Shown in pieces: positions 24,384 through 32,000 of a stretch of 32,000 bases of DNA. A program made the position numbers and the translations under genes. The notes beneath the pieces were generated by a model, which saw only the letters and a program-made list of their open reading frames with translations, ran no database searches and was not told the origin of the DNA. Each line of letters opens with the position of its first letter. Position 1 is the stretch's first letter. The DNA is from Candidatus Kuenenia stuttgartensis (GTDB lineage: Bacteria > Planctomycetota > Brocadiia > Brocadiales > Brocadiaceae): assembly GCF_900232105.1 (NCBI RefSeq), contig NZ_LT934425.1, positions 3,300,001 through 3,332,000 of the forward strand. The letters run 5' to 3'.

Positions 24384-25688
24384 TACTCAAACGGATTGAA
24401 AATTCAATGTAGAGATCCCCTTTAACTATGGTAAACTATTGACCTATGAAAATTACCCTAACCGAAGAGCAGAAACAAAAGCTGGAAGAACAGCACAAAA
24501 CCGAAAGAGATAGTAGAATATGCGATCGGATAAAGGCTGTATTATTGGCTAACGAAGGCTGGACTCAAAGGCAAATAGCTCAGGCATTACGCATACATGA
24601 AACCACGGTATGGGGTCACGTAAAGGATTACGTAATTCAGGAAAAATTAAAACCAAGCAGTGGCGGCTCTTCAAGTAAGTTGAATGAACAGCAAACGATA
24701 GAGATAATATCACATTTAGAACAAAACACCTATTCATCAACCAAAGAAATCATTCAATACGTCCAAGACACTTATGGTGTAAGTTATACGCAACAAGGCA
24801 TGCATGATTGGCTGATTAAGCACAAGTTTTCGTATAAAAAGCCTAAAGGGGTTCCCGCCAAGTTCAATAAATTACGGCAAGAAGCATTTATTCGGGAATA
24901 TGAAGAATTAAAAGCCAACCTCGGACCTGGCGAGGTTGTGCTGTTTATTGACAGTGTCCACCCTACTCAAGCGACAAAAATTACCAGTGGTTGGATTAGA
25001 AAAGGCGTAGAAAAGATGATAGCTACCGTTGCAAGCCGGAGTAGAATAAACCTAACTGGTGCAATTGATTTAAACACCATGTCGATTATTACTCGTGAGT
25101 ACGAGACCACAAATGGTAGCGCTACCGTTGACTTTTTAAAGGCAATCGAAGCAGCACACCCTGCATCCGCTAAAATTCATATAATCGCTGATGGTGGCGG
25201 AGCCCATACGTCAAATGAAGTAGGATTATTTTTATCAGAAGCAAATGCAGTAAACCGATTATTTTTAGATGAAACGTACGGGATCAAATTACCTGGCAAT
25301 AGCGTAAAATTACCGAAGAAAATGAAAGTACAGCTAAAATCAATTGTAGAAAAAGAGGCACAATTGTTTAAGGATCATTCAATTTTAGATGTTGACAAAT
25401 TAACTGCGCGTGAATTATTAGATACGCTAAAAGCACCACAACCGCATCCTAAATTAGTGATGCATATCTTGCCACCCTATAGTCCCAATTTGAACCCAAT
25501 TGAAAGAGCGTGGAAGGTAATGAATGAGCATGTCAGAAACAATAAGGTATTCGATTCATTTACTGAATTCAAAGCTAAAATCCGTACGTTTTTTAGTTCA
25601 ACCTGGAATATCATTTTACCTGATTTGACAGACAGAATTAATGATAATTTCCAGAAGCTGAAACCAGTGGTTTCAGTCTGATTGAGTA
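24384..25688 (+). mobile_element. IS630-family insertion sequence (second, different copy)
   Basis: Inverted repeats tactcaaacggattgaaa (24384-24401) against the reverse complement of 25671-25688 (tactcaatcagactgaaa), 15/18 identical. TA precedes the left end. The TA on the right side is offset by 2 nt, so the exact tips are uncertain. Confidence 0.65.
24446..25681 (+). CDS. IS630-family transposase with extended D-to-E spacer
   Basis: HTH N-terminus, FIDSVHPTQ, IIADGGGAH and LPPYSPNLNPIERAWK. By my count 104 residues separate the second Asp from the Glu, versus 35 in the copy at 9027-10064. Confidence 0.85.
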   Translation: MKITLTEEQKQKLEEQHKTERDSRICDRIKAVLLANEGWTQRQIAQALRIHETTVWGHVKDYVIQEKLKPSSGGSSSKLNEQQTIEIISHLEQNTYSSTKEIIQYVQDTYGVSYTQQGMHDWLIKHKFSYKKPKGVPAKFNKLRQEAFIREYEELKANLGPGEVVLFIDSVHPTQATKITSGWIRKGVEKMIATVASRSRINLTGAIDLNTMSIITREYETTNGSATVDFLKAIEAAHPASAKIHIIADGGGAHTSNEVGLFLSEANAVNRLFLDETYGIKLPGNSVKLPKKMKVQLKSIVEKEAQLFKDHSILDVDKLTARELLDTLKAPQPHPKLVMHILPPYSPNLNPIERAWKVMNEHVRNNKVFDSFTEFKAKIRTFFSSTWNIILPDLTDRINDNFQKLKPVVSV

Positions 25689-27171: not shown

Positions 27172-28390
27172 GTAAATGCGTTAAAACCAGGCAGCAAGAT
27201 GCCGTGCATAGAGACGTGTGTGGGGTCTGTTCAGTTATAGAATTTCGAGCCTTTGTGGTGTGTTATAGAGCGAAAGAAAAGGGTGAAAAAACCTGTGGTA
27301 TAATAGATGCAGTAGATAATTTCAGGCTAATTATACAGGTATCATCCATTGACGATAGAGAATATAGACGTAGACGCAACACTCCAAAAAGTAGAGAAGC
27401 TGCTTTCAGAAGAGAAAGGGCTGTCACCGGCGGTGAGGTCAATGATAGAGTTGTTGGCATTATTGATAACACTGCTGGTAGGACGTCTGAACCGGAACAG
27501 CCGCAACAGCAGCAAGCCTCCCTCAAGCGATCCGAATCGCAAGAAAGAAAGCAAGGCGAAGGGTGAAAGGAAGGCAGGCGGGCAAAAGGGCCGTGATGGA
27601 GTAACGCTCAAAAAGGTAGACAATCCTGATGAGGTGGAAGTAATAAAAGTAGATCGGAGGAAGTATCCGCGCAGCAAATACAAGGTGGTAGGTTACGAAG
27701 CACGCCAGGTGTTTGATATAAAGATTTCGCGTGTAGTAACGGAGTATCGTGCAGAGGTAGTAGAGGATGCGAAAGGGAACCGGATTGTAGCGTCATTTCC
27801 GGAAGGGGTAACAAAGGCGGTGCAGTATGGTCCGGATTTGAAAGCGCATGCAGTCTATATGTCGCAGTATCAATTGATACCCTACAAGAGGATACAGGAG
27901 TATTTTGAAGGACAGATTGGGATACCGCTGAGTGAAGGTTCTGTTTACAACTTTAACAGGGAAGCCTACGAGTCATTGGAACCCTTCGAAGTGAGAGCCA
28001 GGGAAGAACTTGCAAAATCAGAGGTGATGCATGTGGATGAAACTAGTATCAACAAGAATGGAGACAGGTATTGGTTGCACAGTGCATCCAATAGTTTGTG
28101 GACGTACTTTTTCCCGCATGAAAGACGTGGAACAGAAGCGATAAATAGTATCGGGATATTACCTGAATTTAAGGGGATTCTTTGCCACGACCATTTGAAG
28201 TCGTATTACACCTATAGCAACTGTACGCATGCGTTGTGTAATGCACACCACTTGAGGGAATTGGATGGTGTGTGGGAAGATGATAATAAGCAGGAGTGGG
28301 CGAAAGAGATGAAAGCATTACTTAAAGAGATAAACCGTGCGACGAGTGATGCCGGGGGAATGCTGGGTGCTAAGCCCCACAATAAATGAA
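27172..28390 (+). mobile_element. IS66-family element (single-ORF type), 3'-truncated
   Basis: The candidate left tip GTAAATGCG at 27172 resembles the GTAA-type IS66 ends and coincides with a rise in GC. The transposase ORF ends prematurely at 28389, next to a different element. Confidence 0.55.
27349..28389 (+). CDS. IS66-family transposase, C-terminally truncated
   Basis: Hallmark N-terminal region LLALLITLLVGRLNRNSRNSSKPPSSD, then VMHVDETSI and CNAHHLREL motifs. It has only 346 aa, whereas IS66 TnpC-type proteins are about 500 aa. TTG start is uncertain. Confidence 0.8.
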   Translation: MTIENIDVDATLQKVEKLLSEEKGLSPAVRSMIELLALLITLLVGRLNRNSRNSSKPPSSDPNRKKESKAKGERKAGGQKGRDGVTLKKVDNPDEVEVIKVDRRKYPRSKYKVVGYEARQVFDIKISRVVTEYRAEVVEDAKGNRIVASFPEGVTKAVQYGPDLKAHAVYMSQYQLIPYKRIQEYFEGQIGIPLSEGSVYNFNREAYESLEPFEVRAREELAKSEVMHVDETSINKNGDRYWLHSASNSLWTYFFPHERRGTEAINSIGILPEFKGILCHDHLKSYYTYSNCTHALCNAHHLRELDGVWEDDNKQEWAKEMKALLKEINRATSDAGGMLGAKPHNK

Positions 28391-28405
28391 CCTGGAATTC
28401 TCAGA

Positions 28406-28708
28406 TTAAGTGGAATTAATATATTGAGGTAAAACGGATTTTAGCAGATAGACAGCATCTGGGAAAGAGGAGTTGGAATCTACCATGACGATGTCGATGG
28501 TATTAAAGTTTTTTTTACAACGGAAACACCTGGCGAGGTTCGTATTTGGGTTGGTGGCGGAATTAAATTCAGAACAGAGAGGGCAGAGGAAGCGGAAATA
28601 GCCTTCGGAGTATTTATGAGGTATGGAGAGGACATCAGCGATGAGTCGATCGATGGGGATATCGTTTCGTAATGAGCGCAAGAGTTGAGGGGAAAAGAGA
28701 CGGGCCAT
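28406..28708 (-). CDS. Small CHC2-like (primase-type) zinc-finger protein
   Basis: 100 aa. CPLC-x16-CFRC followed by NTIDIVM resembles the DnaG-type zinc finger. It is the last gene of the transposon module, 11 nt after the ATPase gene. Confidence 0.55.
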   Translation of the reverse strand: MARLFSPQLLRSLRNDIPIDRLIADVLSIPHKYSEGYFRFLCPLCSEFNSATNPNTNLARCFRCKKNFNTIDIVMVDSNSSFPDAVYLLKSVLPQYINST

Positions 28709-28719
28709 GGTAGACCTCC

Positions 28720-29511
28720 TTAAAAAGATTGAATTTCAGCAAGAGCCTGATGGAAGATATCCTGGGTAATTTTCTGTGATTGTCTGATGGAAGCGTTAAT
28801 CAGGCAGGCGGTGGAAATGGCGTTGATTTGCCTTGGGATGCCGGCGGAGAACTCATGGATCAGGTCTTTGACGTCTGAGTCAAAGATTTTATCGGATGCG
28901 CCGGAAGATTTCAGATGGAAGTCTATGTATGCAGCGGTTTGAGTTTTAGTAAGGGGATGAATGTGGTAATGTACCGAGATGCGTTGTGCGAAGTCGGCAT
29001 GGATGTCTCTTTTGAGGATATATTTGAGGTGTTCCTGTCCCGAGAGGATGATTTTGAGATGAGTGGAAGAATCAAGCGGAGAGCTGACAAGGAGTCTGAG
29101 GTCTGTGATGGCGTCGGTTTTCAGGAGATGAGCCTCGTCGATAACGATAATGGGAGTGAGATTTGAGCGCAAGGATTTATCCATAATTTGGAGGAAGAGC
29201 CGGTCTTTGGTGTGTTTTGGTATTTCACCGAGCTGGGAGACGATTAAGGAGAGAAGGCTGGATGATTTTAGGTGGGTAAAATGGAGGTAGATGGGGAGAA
29301 ACAGGTTTTGGGGGATTTGTGAGAGGAAGAGTTTGAGGAGTGTGGATTTTCCGACTCCCGTCTGTCCGTAGAGGACGGCGATAGAGCCTGAGTGTAAGAG
29401 GTATTGGAGTCGTGCAAGCCCCTGGGTAAAGCGTTCGTCTTTCATGATAAGGCTGGTGTTGATTCTTTCAGAGAACGGCTGAGTAGTCATGGAAAAATGA
29501 GAAGTAAACAT
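28720..29511 (-). CDS. ExeA/TniB-like AAA+ ATPase (transposition helper)
   Basis: Walker A GQTGVGKST, Walker B IIVIDEAHLL. The ExeA-type opening FSMTTQPFSERINTSLIMKDERFTQGLARLQYLL. Separated by 2 nt from the transposase stop. Confidence 0.8.
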   Translation of the reverse strand: MFTSHFSMTTQPFSERINTSLIMKDERFTQGLARLQYLLHSGSIAVLYGQTGVGKSTLLKLFLSQIPQNLFLPIYLHFTHLKSSSLLSLIVSQLGEIPKHTKDRLFLQIMDKSLRSNLTPIIVIDEAHLLKTDAITDLRLLVSSPLDSSTHLKIILSGQEHLKYILKRDIHADFAQRISVHYHIHPLTKTQTAAYIDFHLKSSGASDKIFDSDVKDLIHEFSAGIPRQINAISTACLINASIRQSQKITQDIFHQALAEIQSF

Positions 29512-29513
29512 GG

Positions 29514-31074
29514 TTAAGAGACCTCCTTTTTCGAGTAAGCGATTTGTAATTCACGAATGATATAGGGTAAGGTTTTCACGGAGGCATTTTGGAATGCCTC
29601 CGTGAGCAATGATTCGTTGAGAGCGGGGATACGGTTGTAGCATTTTTTAAGCGATTCGAGTTCATGAGAGCTGAAGGCGGAGAGAGAGCCTTTGTGTCCC
29701 ATGAGGAGTGCGAGTTTCTGGACGAATGCCATGAATGGCCAGGGTCGTTCGGAGATGATTTGGTGGTAATCAATGCCTTTGGCCTGAGCCTGGAGAATGG
29801 ATTTGTGTTTCTGAGTGATAAGGTCGAGGTAATTATGTTTTGGTTTTGAAGGTGAGGCGGCTGGAGTTTCAGCGCCCTGGTCGCGCAGGTAGAGATTTCC
29901 CGAGCCGAGGTATTCACCGTTTGCGGAATAGATCAAGACCTTTTTGAGATCGCCGTATGGGTCGTAACGGACTTCTACTTTATCGCCTCTGAGTTTGGGG
30001 TCAACACGGTAAAAGCGGTTATCAATGCGGACATCGGCAAAGGTTCTGTCAACGGTTCTGGGGATGCGTTTCATGAAGAAGGCAAGAGCGGCGTCCATAT
30101 CGACGTGTCGGATGACGGTAAGCCCCTCGTCGTAGCGTTGTTTTGGAGATTGATTGGTTTCGGAGTGGATTCTTGCGTGATAGACAACGGCAAGGTAAGC
30201 GGAGAAGGCCTGGTTAATGGCATCAAGGGTGATAATGTCGCCGGAGCGGACTTCCGACTCGAACTGTGTCTGGCTGGTGCCGAAGAAACGTTCGACCAGT
30301 CCGCCGGGAGCAGGGTCGCGTGGTGGTCTGTGGATGAGTTTAATGCCGAGGTTGTAACAGGCAGAGCGCAGGGCGTCAGAGTGGTAGACCTTGGCATTGT
30401 CGAGGTAGAGTTCTTTGGGCGAGCCGTGGATAGTCCAGGCCCTGATGAGAGAATCGATAAGGATATCGAGGGTTTGTTTGAGATAATACCGTCCTTCGAC
30501 CACATAACGGCTGTAGCAGTCGATAAAGAGACAGAGGTTTGTGGGAAGCGCCTCGCCGTCAACGAGCACGAAAGGGCCTTCCTGGAAGTCGCCAATCCAG
30601 AGGTCGTGGGTATGCTCACGGCTAAGAGCGTATACGCACCTTTTGCTGTGAGACGCCGAGTTTGAGCCGGGTCGCCCCTGCGAGTCTGAGATGGCGGTAG
30701 AGGGTGGATTTGGGGATCGTTTTCCCATAGTATTTCTCAAGAAAGCGGTTGAGGCAATCGTCGCTGCGGCGTGGTTGTTCTTTTTTGAGTTCAACGGCTT
30801 TGTCGATAATTTCAGGAGAAAACCTTCTGGATGCGCCACGGTCGCTCCTCGCCTTTCTTGCAAGAGATTGAAATCCATCTTTGCGGTAGCGGTTGAGTTT
30901 TCTCCTGAGGGTAGAGATAGTGGGTCTTTTCCGCTTTCCGTTGGGGAATACGACCTCCTGAAGGCAGAGTTTTTTCAGAAAAAGGTTGGTCTGCTCCTTC
31001 TCAATCTCACCGAAGATGACAGGATGCAGAAGATTGCACCAGAATAAAGCCCATTTTTCGTCTTTCGATTTCAT
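29514..31074 (-). pseudogene. Mu/TniA-like DDE transposase, split by a +1 frameshift
   Basis: ORF 30622-31074 encodes the HTH N-terminus (ends ...GATRLKLGVSQQKVRIRS*). ORF 29514-30878 carries the rve core (DLWIGDF, YLDNAKVYHS, GGLVERFF) and a Mu-transposase C-terminal-like segment (GDKVEVRYDPYGDLKKVLIY). Its first 80 or so codons look like out-of-frame readthrough. The frames join near the A4 run (30641-30644). Confidence 0.75.
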
Positions 31075-31112
31075 AATTCACCTCCTTTTTTAAGTGTGGA
31101 GGTGATTGTAAC

Positions 31113-31751
31113 TCAAGACCAGCCGCTTTTTGTTGCCAGTTCGGGGAAAAATGAATGCCCAAAAATTCGGTGATATTCCGGCTCGGCGCTGAACAATTGA
31201 ATCGATTGATCGAGGGAGGTTTTTCGTTGTTTGCTTTTATACTTTCCGTGGTAAATGGGAAACATTTGGCGAAAAACCGGAGAGTTGGGGTCGGCCTGCC
31301 TGATGAGGTCAAAGGCGTTGCGGAGTGTGTATTTCAGTGAGCCAAAGAAACGCAGCCACCTCCAAACGGTTGACCAGGCAAGCATGCGGTTGTCTATTTC
31401 CTGTGTTCGGGTAGTATATCCGATGGCAGAGGAGACACTCCGGTAGGTTTCTGTATCATCTTTGACATAAGCCTGACTGAAGGAGAGACAGTGATCCTTT
31501 ACGTACCGCTTGTAAGGGAGCGCATACTCAGGATAGGAAGTAAACGTCTTCTTGCACAAGGAACATTTCCAACGTCCCAGGAAAGATTCTATCGTATGAA
31601 CAAGGGAGTCGATAATAACGTGAAACAACCGATATCTGCATTCATGAAGGGTGAAATTGACATGGGTACTCTTGCACTTTGGACAAAAGCATGGCTTCTG
31701 TTTTGTCGCAATAAGCTTTTCATGCTTGTGGATTTTTTCTATAATATTCAC
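31113..31751 (-). CDS. Zinc-ribbon protein (possibly DUF6431-like), first gene of the transposon module
   Basis: CFCPKC ... CSLCKKTFTSYPEYALPYKRY gives two CxxC pairs. GTG start at 31751 with AAGGAGG 6 nt upstream. The DUF6431 assignment is from memory only. Confidence 0.6.
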   Translation of the reverse strand: MNIIEKIHKHEKLIATKQKPCFCPKCKSTHVNFTLHECRYRLFHVIIDSLVHTIESFLGRWKCSLCKKTFTSYPEYALPYKRYVKDHCLSFSQAYVKDDTETYRSVSSAIGYTTRTQEIDNRMLAWSTVWRWLRFFGSLKYTLRNAFDLIRQADPNSPVFRQMFPIYHGKYKSKQRKTSLDQSIQLFSAEPEYHRIFGHSFFPELATKSGWS

Positions 31752-31780
31752 GCACTGCCTCCTTTGTATAGGGGGGAAAT

Positions 31781-31832
31781 GGGCAGGAGGATGAAGTTTC
31801 CCAACGTTCGGTCCTCCTGCCCTGAGTTTTTT
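31781..31832 (+). terminator. Perfect 11-bp GC-rich hairpin plus T-run upstream of the transposon's first gene
   Basis: gggcaggagga (31781-31791) pairs with tcctcctgccc (31812-31822), followed by tgagtttttt. The terminator polarity is on the + strand, that is, outward-facing relative to the element's genes. Confidence 0.5.
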
Positions 31833-32000
31833 ATGTTCCGGAAAAATCTTACAAAACTTGTCCTCGTGAAAACGGGGAACTGGGAAGTAAACCGCCGTTA
31901 GGAAGTTTGGAAGTGGTTTTAACCCCTTCCAAACTATTTAATGAGGCTTTACTCCGCCTTACGGACGGAACTTCTTTCTAACGGGGTAAACGATGTATTT

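Follow-up and report, generated by a model that had tools for sequence, protein, structure and literature searches.

The transposon locus and its boundaries

The region analysed in this work is a stretch of 32,000 nt from Candidatus Kuenenia stuttgartiensis (assembly GCF_900232105.1, contig NZ_LT934425.1, positions 3,300,001–3,332,000 of the forward strand), hereafter called the window, whose proteins match this organism at 100% identity. A transposon of 3,790 bp occupies its right-hand part from position 28368 to ~32157, the final 157 bp of the element (its left end) lying beyond the window edge. Most of the element consists of four genes on the minus strand (28406–31751), which are 2–38 nt apart and encode a DUF6431 zinc protein, a DDE transposase, an AAA+ ATPase, and a stand-alone primase-type zinc-binding domain. 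The original prediction, made from the sequence alone, had described a co-directional, tightly packed Mu/Tn7-like module of four genes at 28406–31751. All four genes were found where it placed them, but this interval holds the genes and not the whole element, which runs past the window end.

The boundaries were obtained by comparing the window with 11 retrieved loci. At least nine copies have in common a 3,790-bp block of 99.9% identity with sharp shared boundaries and unrelated flanks. The termini are of the TG...CA type, the left one starting with 5'-TGCTACGTCTTAGAATAAATG... and the right one finishing with ...CATTTATTGTGGGGCTTAGCA-3' on the element strand. The right-end terminal inverted repeat is located at 28368–28389 (minus strand), where the homology of the copies stops. 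It is ~21 bp long and imperfect when compared with the left end, and is presumed to be the outer transposase-binding site. Since the left end is outside the window, the inverted repeats inside the window are unable to define the element ends, and the full left end was read from identical copies (e.g., L004).

The interrupted target is the 5' part of an IS66-family transposase gene (DUF6444 and DDE_Tnp_IS66) on the plus strand at 27349–28367, the truncated gene as read being 27349–28389. It matches Pfam DDE_Tnp_IS66 at 6e-32 and NCBIfam transpos_IS66 with 198.7 bits against a cut-off of 180. The right-hand copy of the target-site duplication GCTGGG is found at 28362–28367, and the other copy lies just past the window, after the left end. 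In a long contig of the same chromosomal locus (L012, GCA_048500235.1), GCTGGG is present on both sides of the 3,790-bp element, the IS66 reading frame continues beyond the element, and removal of the element with one repeat gives a 479-aa frame. Thus, the element transposed into an IS66 copy, in agreement with the earlier suggestion that it had landed in another insertion sequence (IS).

The transposase and its lesion

The transposase gene of the window is divided into two parts. The 5' part (30622–31074, minus strand) encodes 150 aa with a conserved N-terminal segment and an HTH_32 helix-turn-helix (HTH) domain (Pfam, 6e-9), which correspond to residues 1–150 of the 519-aa relatives. The 3' part (29514–30620, minus strand), shifted into the +1 frame with respect to the 5' part, includes the rve core, the Mu-transpos_C barrel, and a conserved C-terminal tail. 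The overlapping open reading frame (ORF) at 29514–30878 (minus strand) gives Pfam matches to Mu-transpos_C (4e-10) and rve (1.5e-6) and carries the motif VEVRYDPYGDL. The original assignment as a DDE transposase with these domains and this motif is therefore right, but it had been read as a single gene, whereas this copy has two overlapping ORFs. Among solved structures, ShCAST TnsB (7svw, 4e-12) is closest in sequence, followed by other TnsB proteins and retroviral integrases, and the best phage-protein family is the MuA-type phrog_310 of PHROG (7e-41). All NCBIfam IS models remain below threshold, namely IS481 with 80.7/224 bits (the best, 1e-22), IS3 with 46/160 bits, and IS21 with 41.5/160 bits.

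The lesion lies at 30621–30627 (minus strand), where TCTTAGC replaces the TGGAGC of Trp-Ser and introduces a stop codon and a +1 frame change. The window reads CGC TCT TAG CCG T against CGC TGG AGC CGT in the intact locus L098 (98.8% DNA identity), i.e., GG is changed to CTT. The intact family transposase has 519 aa, and its relatives (514–534 aa) read ...QQKVRIRW(S/T)R(E/D)xTHDLW... over the junction, so the lesion falls within a conserved segment, upstream of the first catalytic Asp. Because of it, the window copy cannot produce a full-length transposase by normal translation. The identical 7-nt lesion was observed in 13/13 Kuenenia copies inspected. Furthermore, 132 index blocks contain the frameshifted product and a single contig the intact one, and intact variants of 97–99% identity (P0005–P0007) come from other samples. 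The dN/dS ratios (nonsynonymous to synonymous substitution rates) of the lesioned lineage against an intact relative are 0.08 for tnpA, 0.05 for the ATPase gene, and 0.27 for the DUF6431 gene, which indicates that the genes evolved under selection and that the lesion is young.

In one of the 13 inspected copies (L001, 6001–7560), which comes from another Kuenenia assembly, a G run 50 nt upstream of the lesion has lost 1 nt. This re-fuses the transposase to a 519-aa ORF, whose product (P0004) bears a 17-residue out-of-frame patch. The deletion could either compensate for the lesion or stem from an assembly error. P0004 was considered as a true intact allele and rejected, since it derives from a lesioned copy in which a second frameshift restores the reading frame.

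The chances are about even that the window copy is a dead, non-autonomous relic, whose copies persist or have been multiplied solely through an intact helper or recombination. The position of the stop codon and frame change ahead of the first catalytic Asp, the intact 519-aa variants in other samples, and the clustering of Kuenenia copies in IS-rich junk regions, several of them without duplications, all point in this direction. On the other hand, the identical lesion is found at at least six distinct flanks with 99.9% identity, which implies recent multiplication of the lesioned form, and the dN/dS of 0.08 indicates little neutral decay so far.

It is unlikely that the Kuenenia element is still autonomous by means of +1 ribosomal frameshifting at CGC UCU UAG C, which would supply small amounts of full-length transposase, with the 150-aa HTH protein as an abundant inhibitor in an IS3-like layout of mutational origin. 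This arrangement would account for the same lesion in all inspected copies at different sites, suggesting spread after the lesion, and for the predominance of the lesioned product in the index. The stop at the shift point also resembles the known +1 sites of prfB (CUU UGA C) and antizyme (UCC UGA U), and the +1 product would have exactly the family length, with KVRIRS-SREHTHDLW in place of KVRIRW-SREHTHDLW and KVRIRSSREHTHDLW as the expected junction peptide. However, re-pairing of the P-site tRNA-Ser from UCU to CUU would be poor, there is no Shine-Dalgarno stimulator at the prfB spacing, and a nearly invariant Trp is lost. The 1-nt deletion in L001 is what would be expected of a deleterious lesion. 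Moreover, the common lesion could be due to an intact copy mobilising the others in trans or to repeats collapsed during assembly, and the loci were retrieved via the frameshifted protein, which is an ascertainment bias.

The ATPase and the two zinc proteins

The third gene (28720–29511, minus strand) encodes an AAA+ ATPase of 263 aa, which is of the AAA_22, ExeA/MuB-like type and has the Walker A motif GQTGVGKST and the Walker B motif VIDEAH. It matches AAA_22 at 5e-21, TIGR03015 at 1e-41 (below the cut-off), the phage family phrog_296 ("DNA transposition protein") at 7e-24, and TniB at 0.026. No IstB match was obtained in the Pfam scan, nor any match in a PDB sequence search with the ATPase. 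The Mu-transpos_C barrel and the phrog_310, phrog_296, and TnsB matches bear out the earlier view that the transposase and the AAA+ regulator form a core of the Mu/Tn7 logic.

The fourth gene (28406–28708, minus strand) encodes 100 aa and is a member of Pfam Zn_ribbon_DnaG (PF01807), with 26.3 bits against a cut-off of 24.9. Its zinc ligands are of the C4 type (CPLC...CFRC) and not CHC2, a Cys standing in place of His. The family profile matches the DnaG zinc domain 1d0q at 4e-4 over residues 1–90. The AlphaFold2 model is confident (predicted local distance difference test, pLDDT, 93), and Foldseek aligned it to 1d0q with a TM score of 0.74 and a root-mean-square deviation of 2.4 Å over 92 columns, followed by Aquifex DnaG. 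The protein lacks a Toprim/RNA-polymerase domain and a helicase-binding domain, and thus it is not a primase. The gene is present in ~84 loci.

The first gene (31113–31751, minus strand) encodes the DUF6431 zinc protein of 212 aa, in which the two CxxC pairs C23/C26 and C63/C66 are invariant. The Pfam match of the window protein to DUF6431 (PF20020) is below threshold (2e-4, 21.4 bits, cut-off 26.6). All 23 relatives in alignment A2 match DUF6431 at E≤1 (best 1.2e-7), and several have a precomputed PF20020 assignment. A full search with the hidden Markov model profile of the protein retrieved 587 representative clusters at 50% identity, and the 150 matches listed are all stand-alone proteins of 111–318 aa, most of them 200–250 aa. 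The AlphaFold2 model is poor (pLDDT 55), the best Foldseek E-value obtained with it (2.0) is therefore meaningless, and a PDB search with the profile yielded a chance match only.

No similarity to TniQ was detected in the 23 relatives of A2, and no TniQ (PF06527) match was found among the window proteins. Furthermore, no endonuclease or recombinase domain was found in the four element genes by Pfam and NCBIfam. The domain assignments of the original prediction (the double-CxxC zinc ribbon, the ExeA/TniB-like AAA+ ATPase, and the primase-like finger) are therefore correct, and so is its statement that the zinc proteins are not TniQ/TnsD or resolvase partners.

Ends, repeats, and leader hairpins

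Each end of the element has a terminal site and a related site 29–40 bp inside. At the right end, which stops 38 bp past the stop codon of the fourth gene, the subterminal repeat TCTCAGATTAAGTGG (as written on the plus strand) is located at 28398–28412 in minus orientation and overlaps that stop codon. It was recognised by eye from 11/15 matches to the left-end subterminal site, and was not returned by the repeat scan. A second copy of the terminal core is also present 29–40 nt inside the ends in other family members, and the repeat at 28398–28412 is presumed to be the inner transposase site.

The left end is long, 406 bp in Kuenenia, and contains an array of 3–10 direct repeats of TACCCCGC or TATCCCGC in a single orientation, inward of the two transposase sites. 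The innermost unit, TTTACCCCGTTAG, is located at 31978–31990 (minus strand), and the remaining units, the two left transposase sites, and the terminus are projected at 31991–32157, beyond the window. In 33/47 non-redundant loci, ACCCCGC (75 occurrences) is the 7-mer with the strongest enrichment in the left end. It is limited to left-end positions ~45–180 and is not found in the right end. The array ends beside a conserved TTGAAA, which is likely a –35 element, and the location of the TACCCCGC repeats next to a promoter would fit a role as operator or enhancer.

A leader hairpin (31781–31822, minus strand) is located just 5' of the Shine-Dalgarno sequence (31758–31764) and GTG start codon of the first gene, with a minimum free energy of –31 kcal/mol and z of –3.3. 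Its 3' arm in the window, UCCUCCU, is a mimic of the anti-Shine-Dalgarno sequence, and most lineages use the Shine-Dalgarno sequence itself as the 3' arm. In 22/29 non-redundant lineages the leader of 100 nt has a folding z < –2 (median –2.9), compared with 1/29 and 4/29 for control windows inside the element. In addition, the hairpin arms co-vary between sub-lineages (GUAUCCCUCC/GGAGGGAUAC, AAGCCUCC/GGAGGCUU, GGUCCCCU/AGAGGACC, and AGCCUUCUUUC/GAAAGAAGGCU). By analogy with IS10 and IS50, the hairpin probably silences the translation of read-through transcripts. A second, longer hairpin (inverted repeat I1; 31882–31958, minus strand) with a minimum free energy of –30.9 kcal/mol and z of –4.6 lies in the non-coding region of the left end. 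The Rfam scan of the element returned no family. The idea that the abutting of both ends creates a junction promoter, as is the case for copy-out-paste-in IS elements, was not supported: the candidate hexamers would lie 19–21 nt apart, as judged by eye. The broken transposase gene, the truncation of the element by the window, the TACCCCGC array, and the leader hairpin had all been overlooked in the original prediction.

Family, distribution, and copy number

Family loci were collected with a profile of 17 diverse transposases from contigs of one genome per species, and their gene content was determined by phmmer with the four window proteins. There are 80 related loci in at least eight phyla, and essentially every one has the same four genes in the same order (DUF6431 protein, DDE transposase, AAA+ ATPase, primase zinc domain) and orientation, the absences coinciding with contig ends. 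The grouping of the four genes is thus far from a chance one. The hosts belong to Planctomycetota, Desulfobacterota (many), Chloroflexota, Bacteroidales, Gammaproteobacteria, Zetaproteobacteria, Cloacimonadaceae, Desantisbacteria, Oligoflexia, and Victivallales. Many family contigs are 3.5–4.4 kb long, which is the signature of an assembly-breaking repeat. A word-index search retrieved 1,048 transposase clusters and 961 clusters of the primase-domain protein (90% identity).

Complete four-gene elements were also observed on contigs of 3.5–3.7 kb binned to archaea, namely Methanophagaceae (L024) and a metagenome-assembled genome (MAG) of Thermoplasmatales (L033). The family would extend across domains, provided that these contigs are correctly binned; short repeat contigs are easily assigned to the wrong bin.

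Four long-read genomes contain 7–9 copies each with 99.8–100% identity, and a fifth contains three copies with 94–99% identity. The unit lengths in long-read genomes are 3,693–4,321 bp, and the copies all begin with T(G/C)CTAnGTCC and finish with ...ACTTAGCA or ...ACGTAGCA, the general pattern of the ends being T(G/C)CTA...TAGCA. Over 32 non-redundant loci, the median identity to the Kuenenia proteins is 58% for the primase-domain protein, 58% for the transposase N-terminus, 52% for the transposase core, 47.5% for the ATPase, and 35% for the DUF6431 protein, whose gene is the fastest-evolving of the four.

The Kuenenia element carries the four genes only and no cargo. In a 4,321-bp variant in Desulfoferrobacter suflitae DRH4 (L042, 2686–3294; also L027 and L085), the left end and the first gene are separated by an oppositely oriented passenger gene, which encodes a 202-aa protein with a SEC-C-type motif CPCGSGKKYKKCC; the family is therefore not strictly cargo-free. 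In a Desulfatiglandales MAG (L055), one copy is 5,393 bp long compared with 3,716 bp and keeps a clean 6-bp duplication; another element has presumably inserted into it. No match was obtained by blastn of the element against 72,556 plasmids or by tblastn of the transposase against 50,697 phage records, and no relative was found in a scan of 2.9 million viral contigs.

Target sites and target selection

The target duplication was determined in 34 copies and is 6 bp in 25, 7 bp in three, 5 bp in one, and absent in five. The collection of homologous modules, with ends and insertion sites defined, that the original prediction had proposed thus consists of 80 loci and 34 copies, with mostly 6-bp duplications. 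No target consensus was found among the 29 duplicated sites from six genomes. Reconstruction of the empty sites placed most of them inside long ORFs of unrelated genes. The scanned target ORFs include four transposases, two tyrosine integrases, McrBC, and a P-type ATPase, and further targets recognised by sequence identity or domain matches are a fifth transposase (L060) and the IS66 gene in the window. The orientation of the copies has no bias with respect to the GC skew of the flanks, 15/30 being positive in a crude test. The element behaves as a dispersed IS and is not an attachment-site transposon, and its copies survive preferentially in dispensable DNA. Such near-random insertion explains why neither a tRNA nor a CRISPR attachment site lies nearby.

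These data also bear on the earlier suggestion that one or both zinc proteins are target selectors, analogues of TniQ, TnsD, or TnsE, which would steer insertion to particular sites or DNA structures. The zinc genes do occupy accessory positions beside the transposase-ATPase core and are universally conserved with it, zinc ribbons are DNA-binding modules, and a primase zinc domain reads a single-stranded template, so that a preference for forks or gaps is conceivable. However, the 29 sites have neither a consensus nor related genes, the orientation test (crude as it is) gave an even split, 0/23 relatives of the DUF6431 protein in A2 are TniQ-like, and genomes with 7–9 dispersed copies show the behaviour of an IS. 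Thus, the sites inspected lend the suggestion no support, and we consider target selection by the zinc proteins improbable.

In short-read Kuenenia contigs no target duplications were seen, which we put down to chimeric or recombined flanks. The Kuenenia duplication is visible in the long contig L012, and those of the family in long-read genomes. In two Kuenenia assemblies (L002 and L003, 3717–4412), a 696-bp IS4-like segment abuts the left end and is inverted between the assemblies, the right flank being common to both. These copies have no target duplication, and the inversion could be due to recombination between IS copies or be the trace of an intramolecular transposition.

Regarding the surroundings of the window copy, the G+C content is 45–53% at 28000–32000 compared with 34–41% at 1–27000, with a stronger positive plus-strand GC skew, which is consistent with recent acquisition from a donor of higher G+C content. 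An apparent IS630-type transposase (HTH_23/29/33 and DDE_3), a full-length ORF of 411 aa, is located at 24446–25681 (plus strand), 1.7 kb from the IS66 remnant; this region of the Kuenenia chromosome is therefore an IS-rich patch.

Proposed mechanism

The element is a DDE-plus-AAA+ transposon with defined ends, which makes 6-bp duplications at non-specific sites and has four genes under purifying selection. We estimate at roughly 0.78 the probability that the locus is a copy of a 3,790-bp IS-like transposon, multi-copy in Kuenenia, from a widespread and apparently undescribed four-gene family that transposes by the following mechanism. The transposase would bind the two sites at each end and nick the 3' ends at the terminal CA, and these 3' ends would be joined to target strands cut 6 bp apart. 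The AAA+ ATPase would coat and present the target DNA and activate the transposase, like MuB, TnsC, TniB, and IstB. The strand-transfer product would then be finished by host replication or repair, either in a Mu-like replicative or nick-join-repair route or in a copy-out-paste-in route. Since there is neither a TnsA-like nuclease nor a resolvase, the completion must rely on host replication or repair.

In this mechanism both zinc proteins would be accessory DNA-binding factors and not attachment-site selectors. The TACCCCGC array is conserved where the DUF6431 protein is only 35% identical, which favours the primase-domain protein or the transposase N-terminus as the likeliest reader. The DUF6431 protein is more likely a regulator or a lineage-specific end-recognition factor. 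In a Pseudonocardia plasmid (L101, 1961–2380), an HTH protein stands in the place of the DUF6431 gene, which suggests a DNA-binding role of this kind for the DUF6431 protein.

Several points weigh against this interpretation. Every step beyond transposition with a 6-bp duplication is deduced from homology. The roles given to the zinc proteins are tentative, the model of the DUF6431 protein is too poor for fold comparison, and the binder of the TACCCCGC array is a guess from conservation. The family may already carry a name in ISfinder or TnCentral. Moreover, the transposase lesion in all Kuenenia copies at differing sites is awkward for a simple dead-copy view, 5/34 copies have no duplication, and the archaeal occurrences depend on the binning of MAGs.

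A rather improbable alternative is that the primase zinc domain is an essential factor which couples strand transfer to DNA synthesis. Primase zinc domains act in trans between subunits, and the protein might either read the TACCCCGC array, which would then be a strand-specific, single-stranded initiation signal, or act in trans on the polymerase domain of host DnaG. If so, the replication that completes transposition in the absence of resolvase and TnsA would be primed from inside the element, and this would be a DDE transposon with its own priming-specificity factor. To our knowledge, a self-carried mechanism of this kind is not known for any transposon.

Significance of the family

Two-component transposons such as Mu, Tn7/CAST, and IS21 combine a DDE transposase with an AAA+ regulator and attract intense structural and biotechnological interest. 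The present family adds to them a compact, essentially cargo-free, and highly successful lineage, with more than 1,000 transposase clusters, many anaerobic phyla, and up to nine copies per genome. It departs from the studied systems in that it has no usual target selector, resolvase, or second nuclease, and has two universally retained zinc proteins. The surprising part is that the bare template-reading domain of a primase is as conserved as the transposase in a Mu-type element without resolvase. The family is therefore a simple system for asking what role a primase domain has in transposition and how the cycle is completed without resolvase. In practical terms, these elements break short-read assemblies of anammox and sulfate-reducer genomes into contigs of 3.5–4.4 kb, and present annotations name their genes no more precisely than "DDE-type integrase", "AAA family ATPase", and "hypothetical protein".

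Comparison with known systems

Tn552 of Staphylococcus aureus encodes the transposase p480, the ATP-binding protein p271, and the resolvase BinL, and has TG...CA termini, two direct repeats per end, and a 6–7-bp duplication. The element described here resembles it in having a DDE transposase followed by a nucleoside triphosphate-binding partner of ~260–270 aa, TG...CA termini, two sites per end, and a 6-bp duplication, and among the known systems Tn552 comes closest to it in the structure of the ends and the length of the duplication. It differs from Tn552 in the lack of a resolvase, a res site, and cargo, and in the presence of two zinc-protein genes and a one-sided TACCCCGC array. In an indirect comparison, Staphylococcus, the Tn552 host, was not among the ten genera with the most plasmids matching the transposase (tblastn, E≤1e-5).

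With Tn7-like elements and Tn5053 the element shares an rve and Mu-transpos_C transposase, an AAA_22-type regulator, a zinc accessory protein, and end arrays of transposase sites. The similarity of TniA to the transposase is confined to the catalytic core (~30% identity, 1e-10), and TniQ/TnsD, TnsA, and the resolvase of Tn7-like, Tn5053, and Tn402 elements are all lacking here. Moreover, Tn7-like elements and Tn5053 make 5-bp duplications in att- or res-directed insertion, whereas 6-bp duplications and dispersed multi-copy insertion were observed here. Tn7-like elements are reported not to have been found in archaea (PMC8649781), whereas the present family is carried on contigs binned to archaeal MAGs.

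IS21 encodes IstA and the AAA+ helper IstB of ~260 aa and has multiple terminal repeats, a terminal CA, a 4–8-bp duplication, and no cargo. The present element is likewise a compact IS with a transposase gene followed by that of an AAA+ helper of ~260 aa, multiple terminal repeats, and a terminal CA. However, its ATPase is AAA_22 ExeA/MuB-like and not DnaC-like IstB (PF01695), it has four genes instead of two, and the IS21 model score is far too low (41.5/160 bits). IS481 is a single-gene IS in contrast to the four genes found here, and its model scores 80.7/224 bits. The phages Mu, D3112, and B3 are similar in their best-matching families (phrog_310 and phrog_296), the Mu-transpos_C barrel, and the absence of a second-strand nuclease. 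In contrast to these phages, the element is 3.8 kb long, has no phage genes, makes a 6-bp and not a 5-bp duplication, and has no match in phages or viral contigs.

It is very unlikely that the element is a member of one of these described families, or a Mu-like prophage remnant, under generic annotation: the common rve, Mu-transpos_C, and AAA+ logic, the Tn552-like ends and duplication, and IS481 as the best ISfinder-type model (1e-22) speak for it, but the NCBIfam scores lie far under their cut-offs, TniQ, TnsA, a resolvase, and an IstB-type ATPase are lacking, TniA matches in the core only, no phage record matches, Staphylococcus is outside the ten top genera, the duplication is 6 and not 5 bp, and no description of the gene set was found in the literature searches. 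As compared by NCBIfam models, plasmids, phages, and literature, Tn7, Tn5053, Tn552, IS21, and IS481 each fail in defining features, and no described family fits. In full-text literature searches, no description of the four-gene set or of the related three-gene cassettes was found, and the matches were incidental mentions only.

These unnamed DUF6431-DDE-AAA cassettes of Actinobacteria, Firmicutes, and Burkholderia, which have the same first three genes in the same order, are the nearest relatives of all. Their transposases are ~30% identical to those of the Kuenenia family over more than 80% of the length. The primase-zinc-domain gene was not detected in the plasmid cassettes. The co-occurrence of both zinc genes with the core is thus borne out in essentially every family relative but not for the primase-like gene in the trio elsewhere. 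A preprint mentions in passing a 15-copy cassette in Clostridium sp. JS66 (bioRxiv 10.64898/2026.08.16.744336), which is set beside these cassettes by its like gene organisation alone. The accessory slots are evolutionarily plastic, as is evident from the HTH protein of the Pseudonocardia plasmid and from an extra 92-aa ORF between transposase and ATPase in a Streptomyces plasmid (L102, 3817–4095).

A relative of 3,385 bp on plasmid p2 of Burkholderia sp. RPE67 (L097, 2659–6043) has perfect inverted repeats of at least 19 bp (TGTTACGTCGCGCGCAGAA) and lacks both the primase-domain gene and the TACCCCGC array. This single case, the only one of seven three-gene loci whose ends could be defined, is an anecdote which hints that the array and the primase-domain gene go together. 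The Burkholderia repeat begins with TGTTACGTC, like TGCTACGTC in Kuenenia, and the tip T-G-n-TACGTC is common to both.

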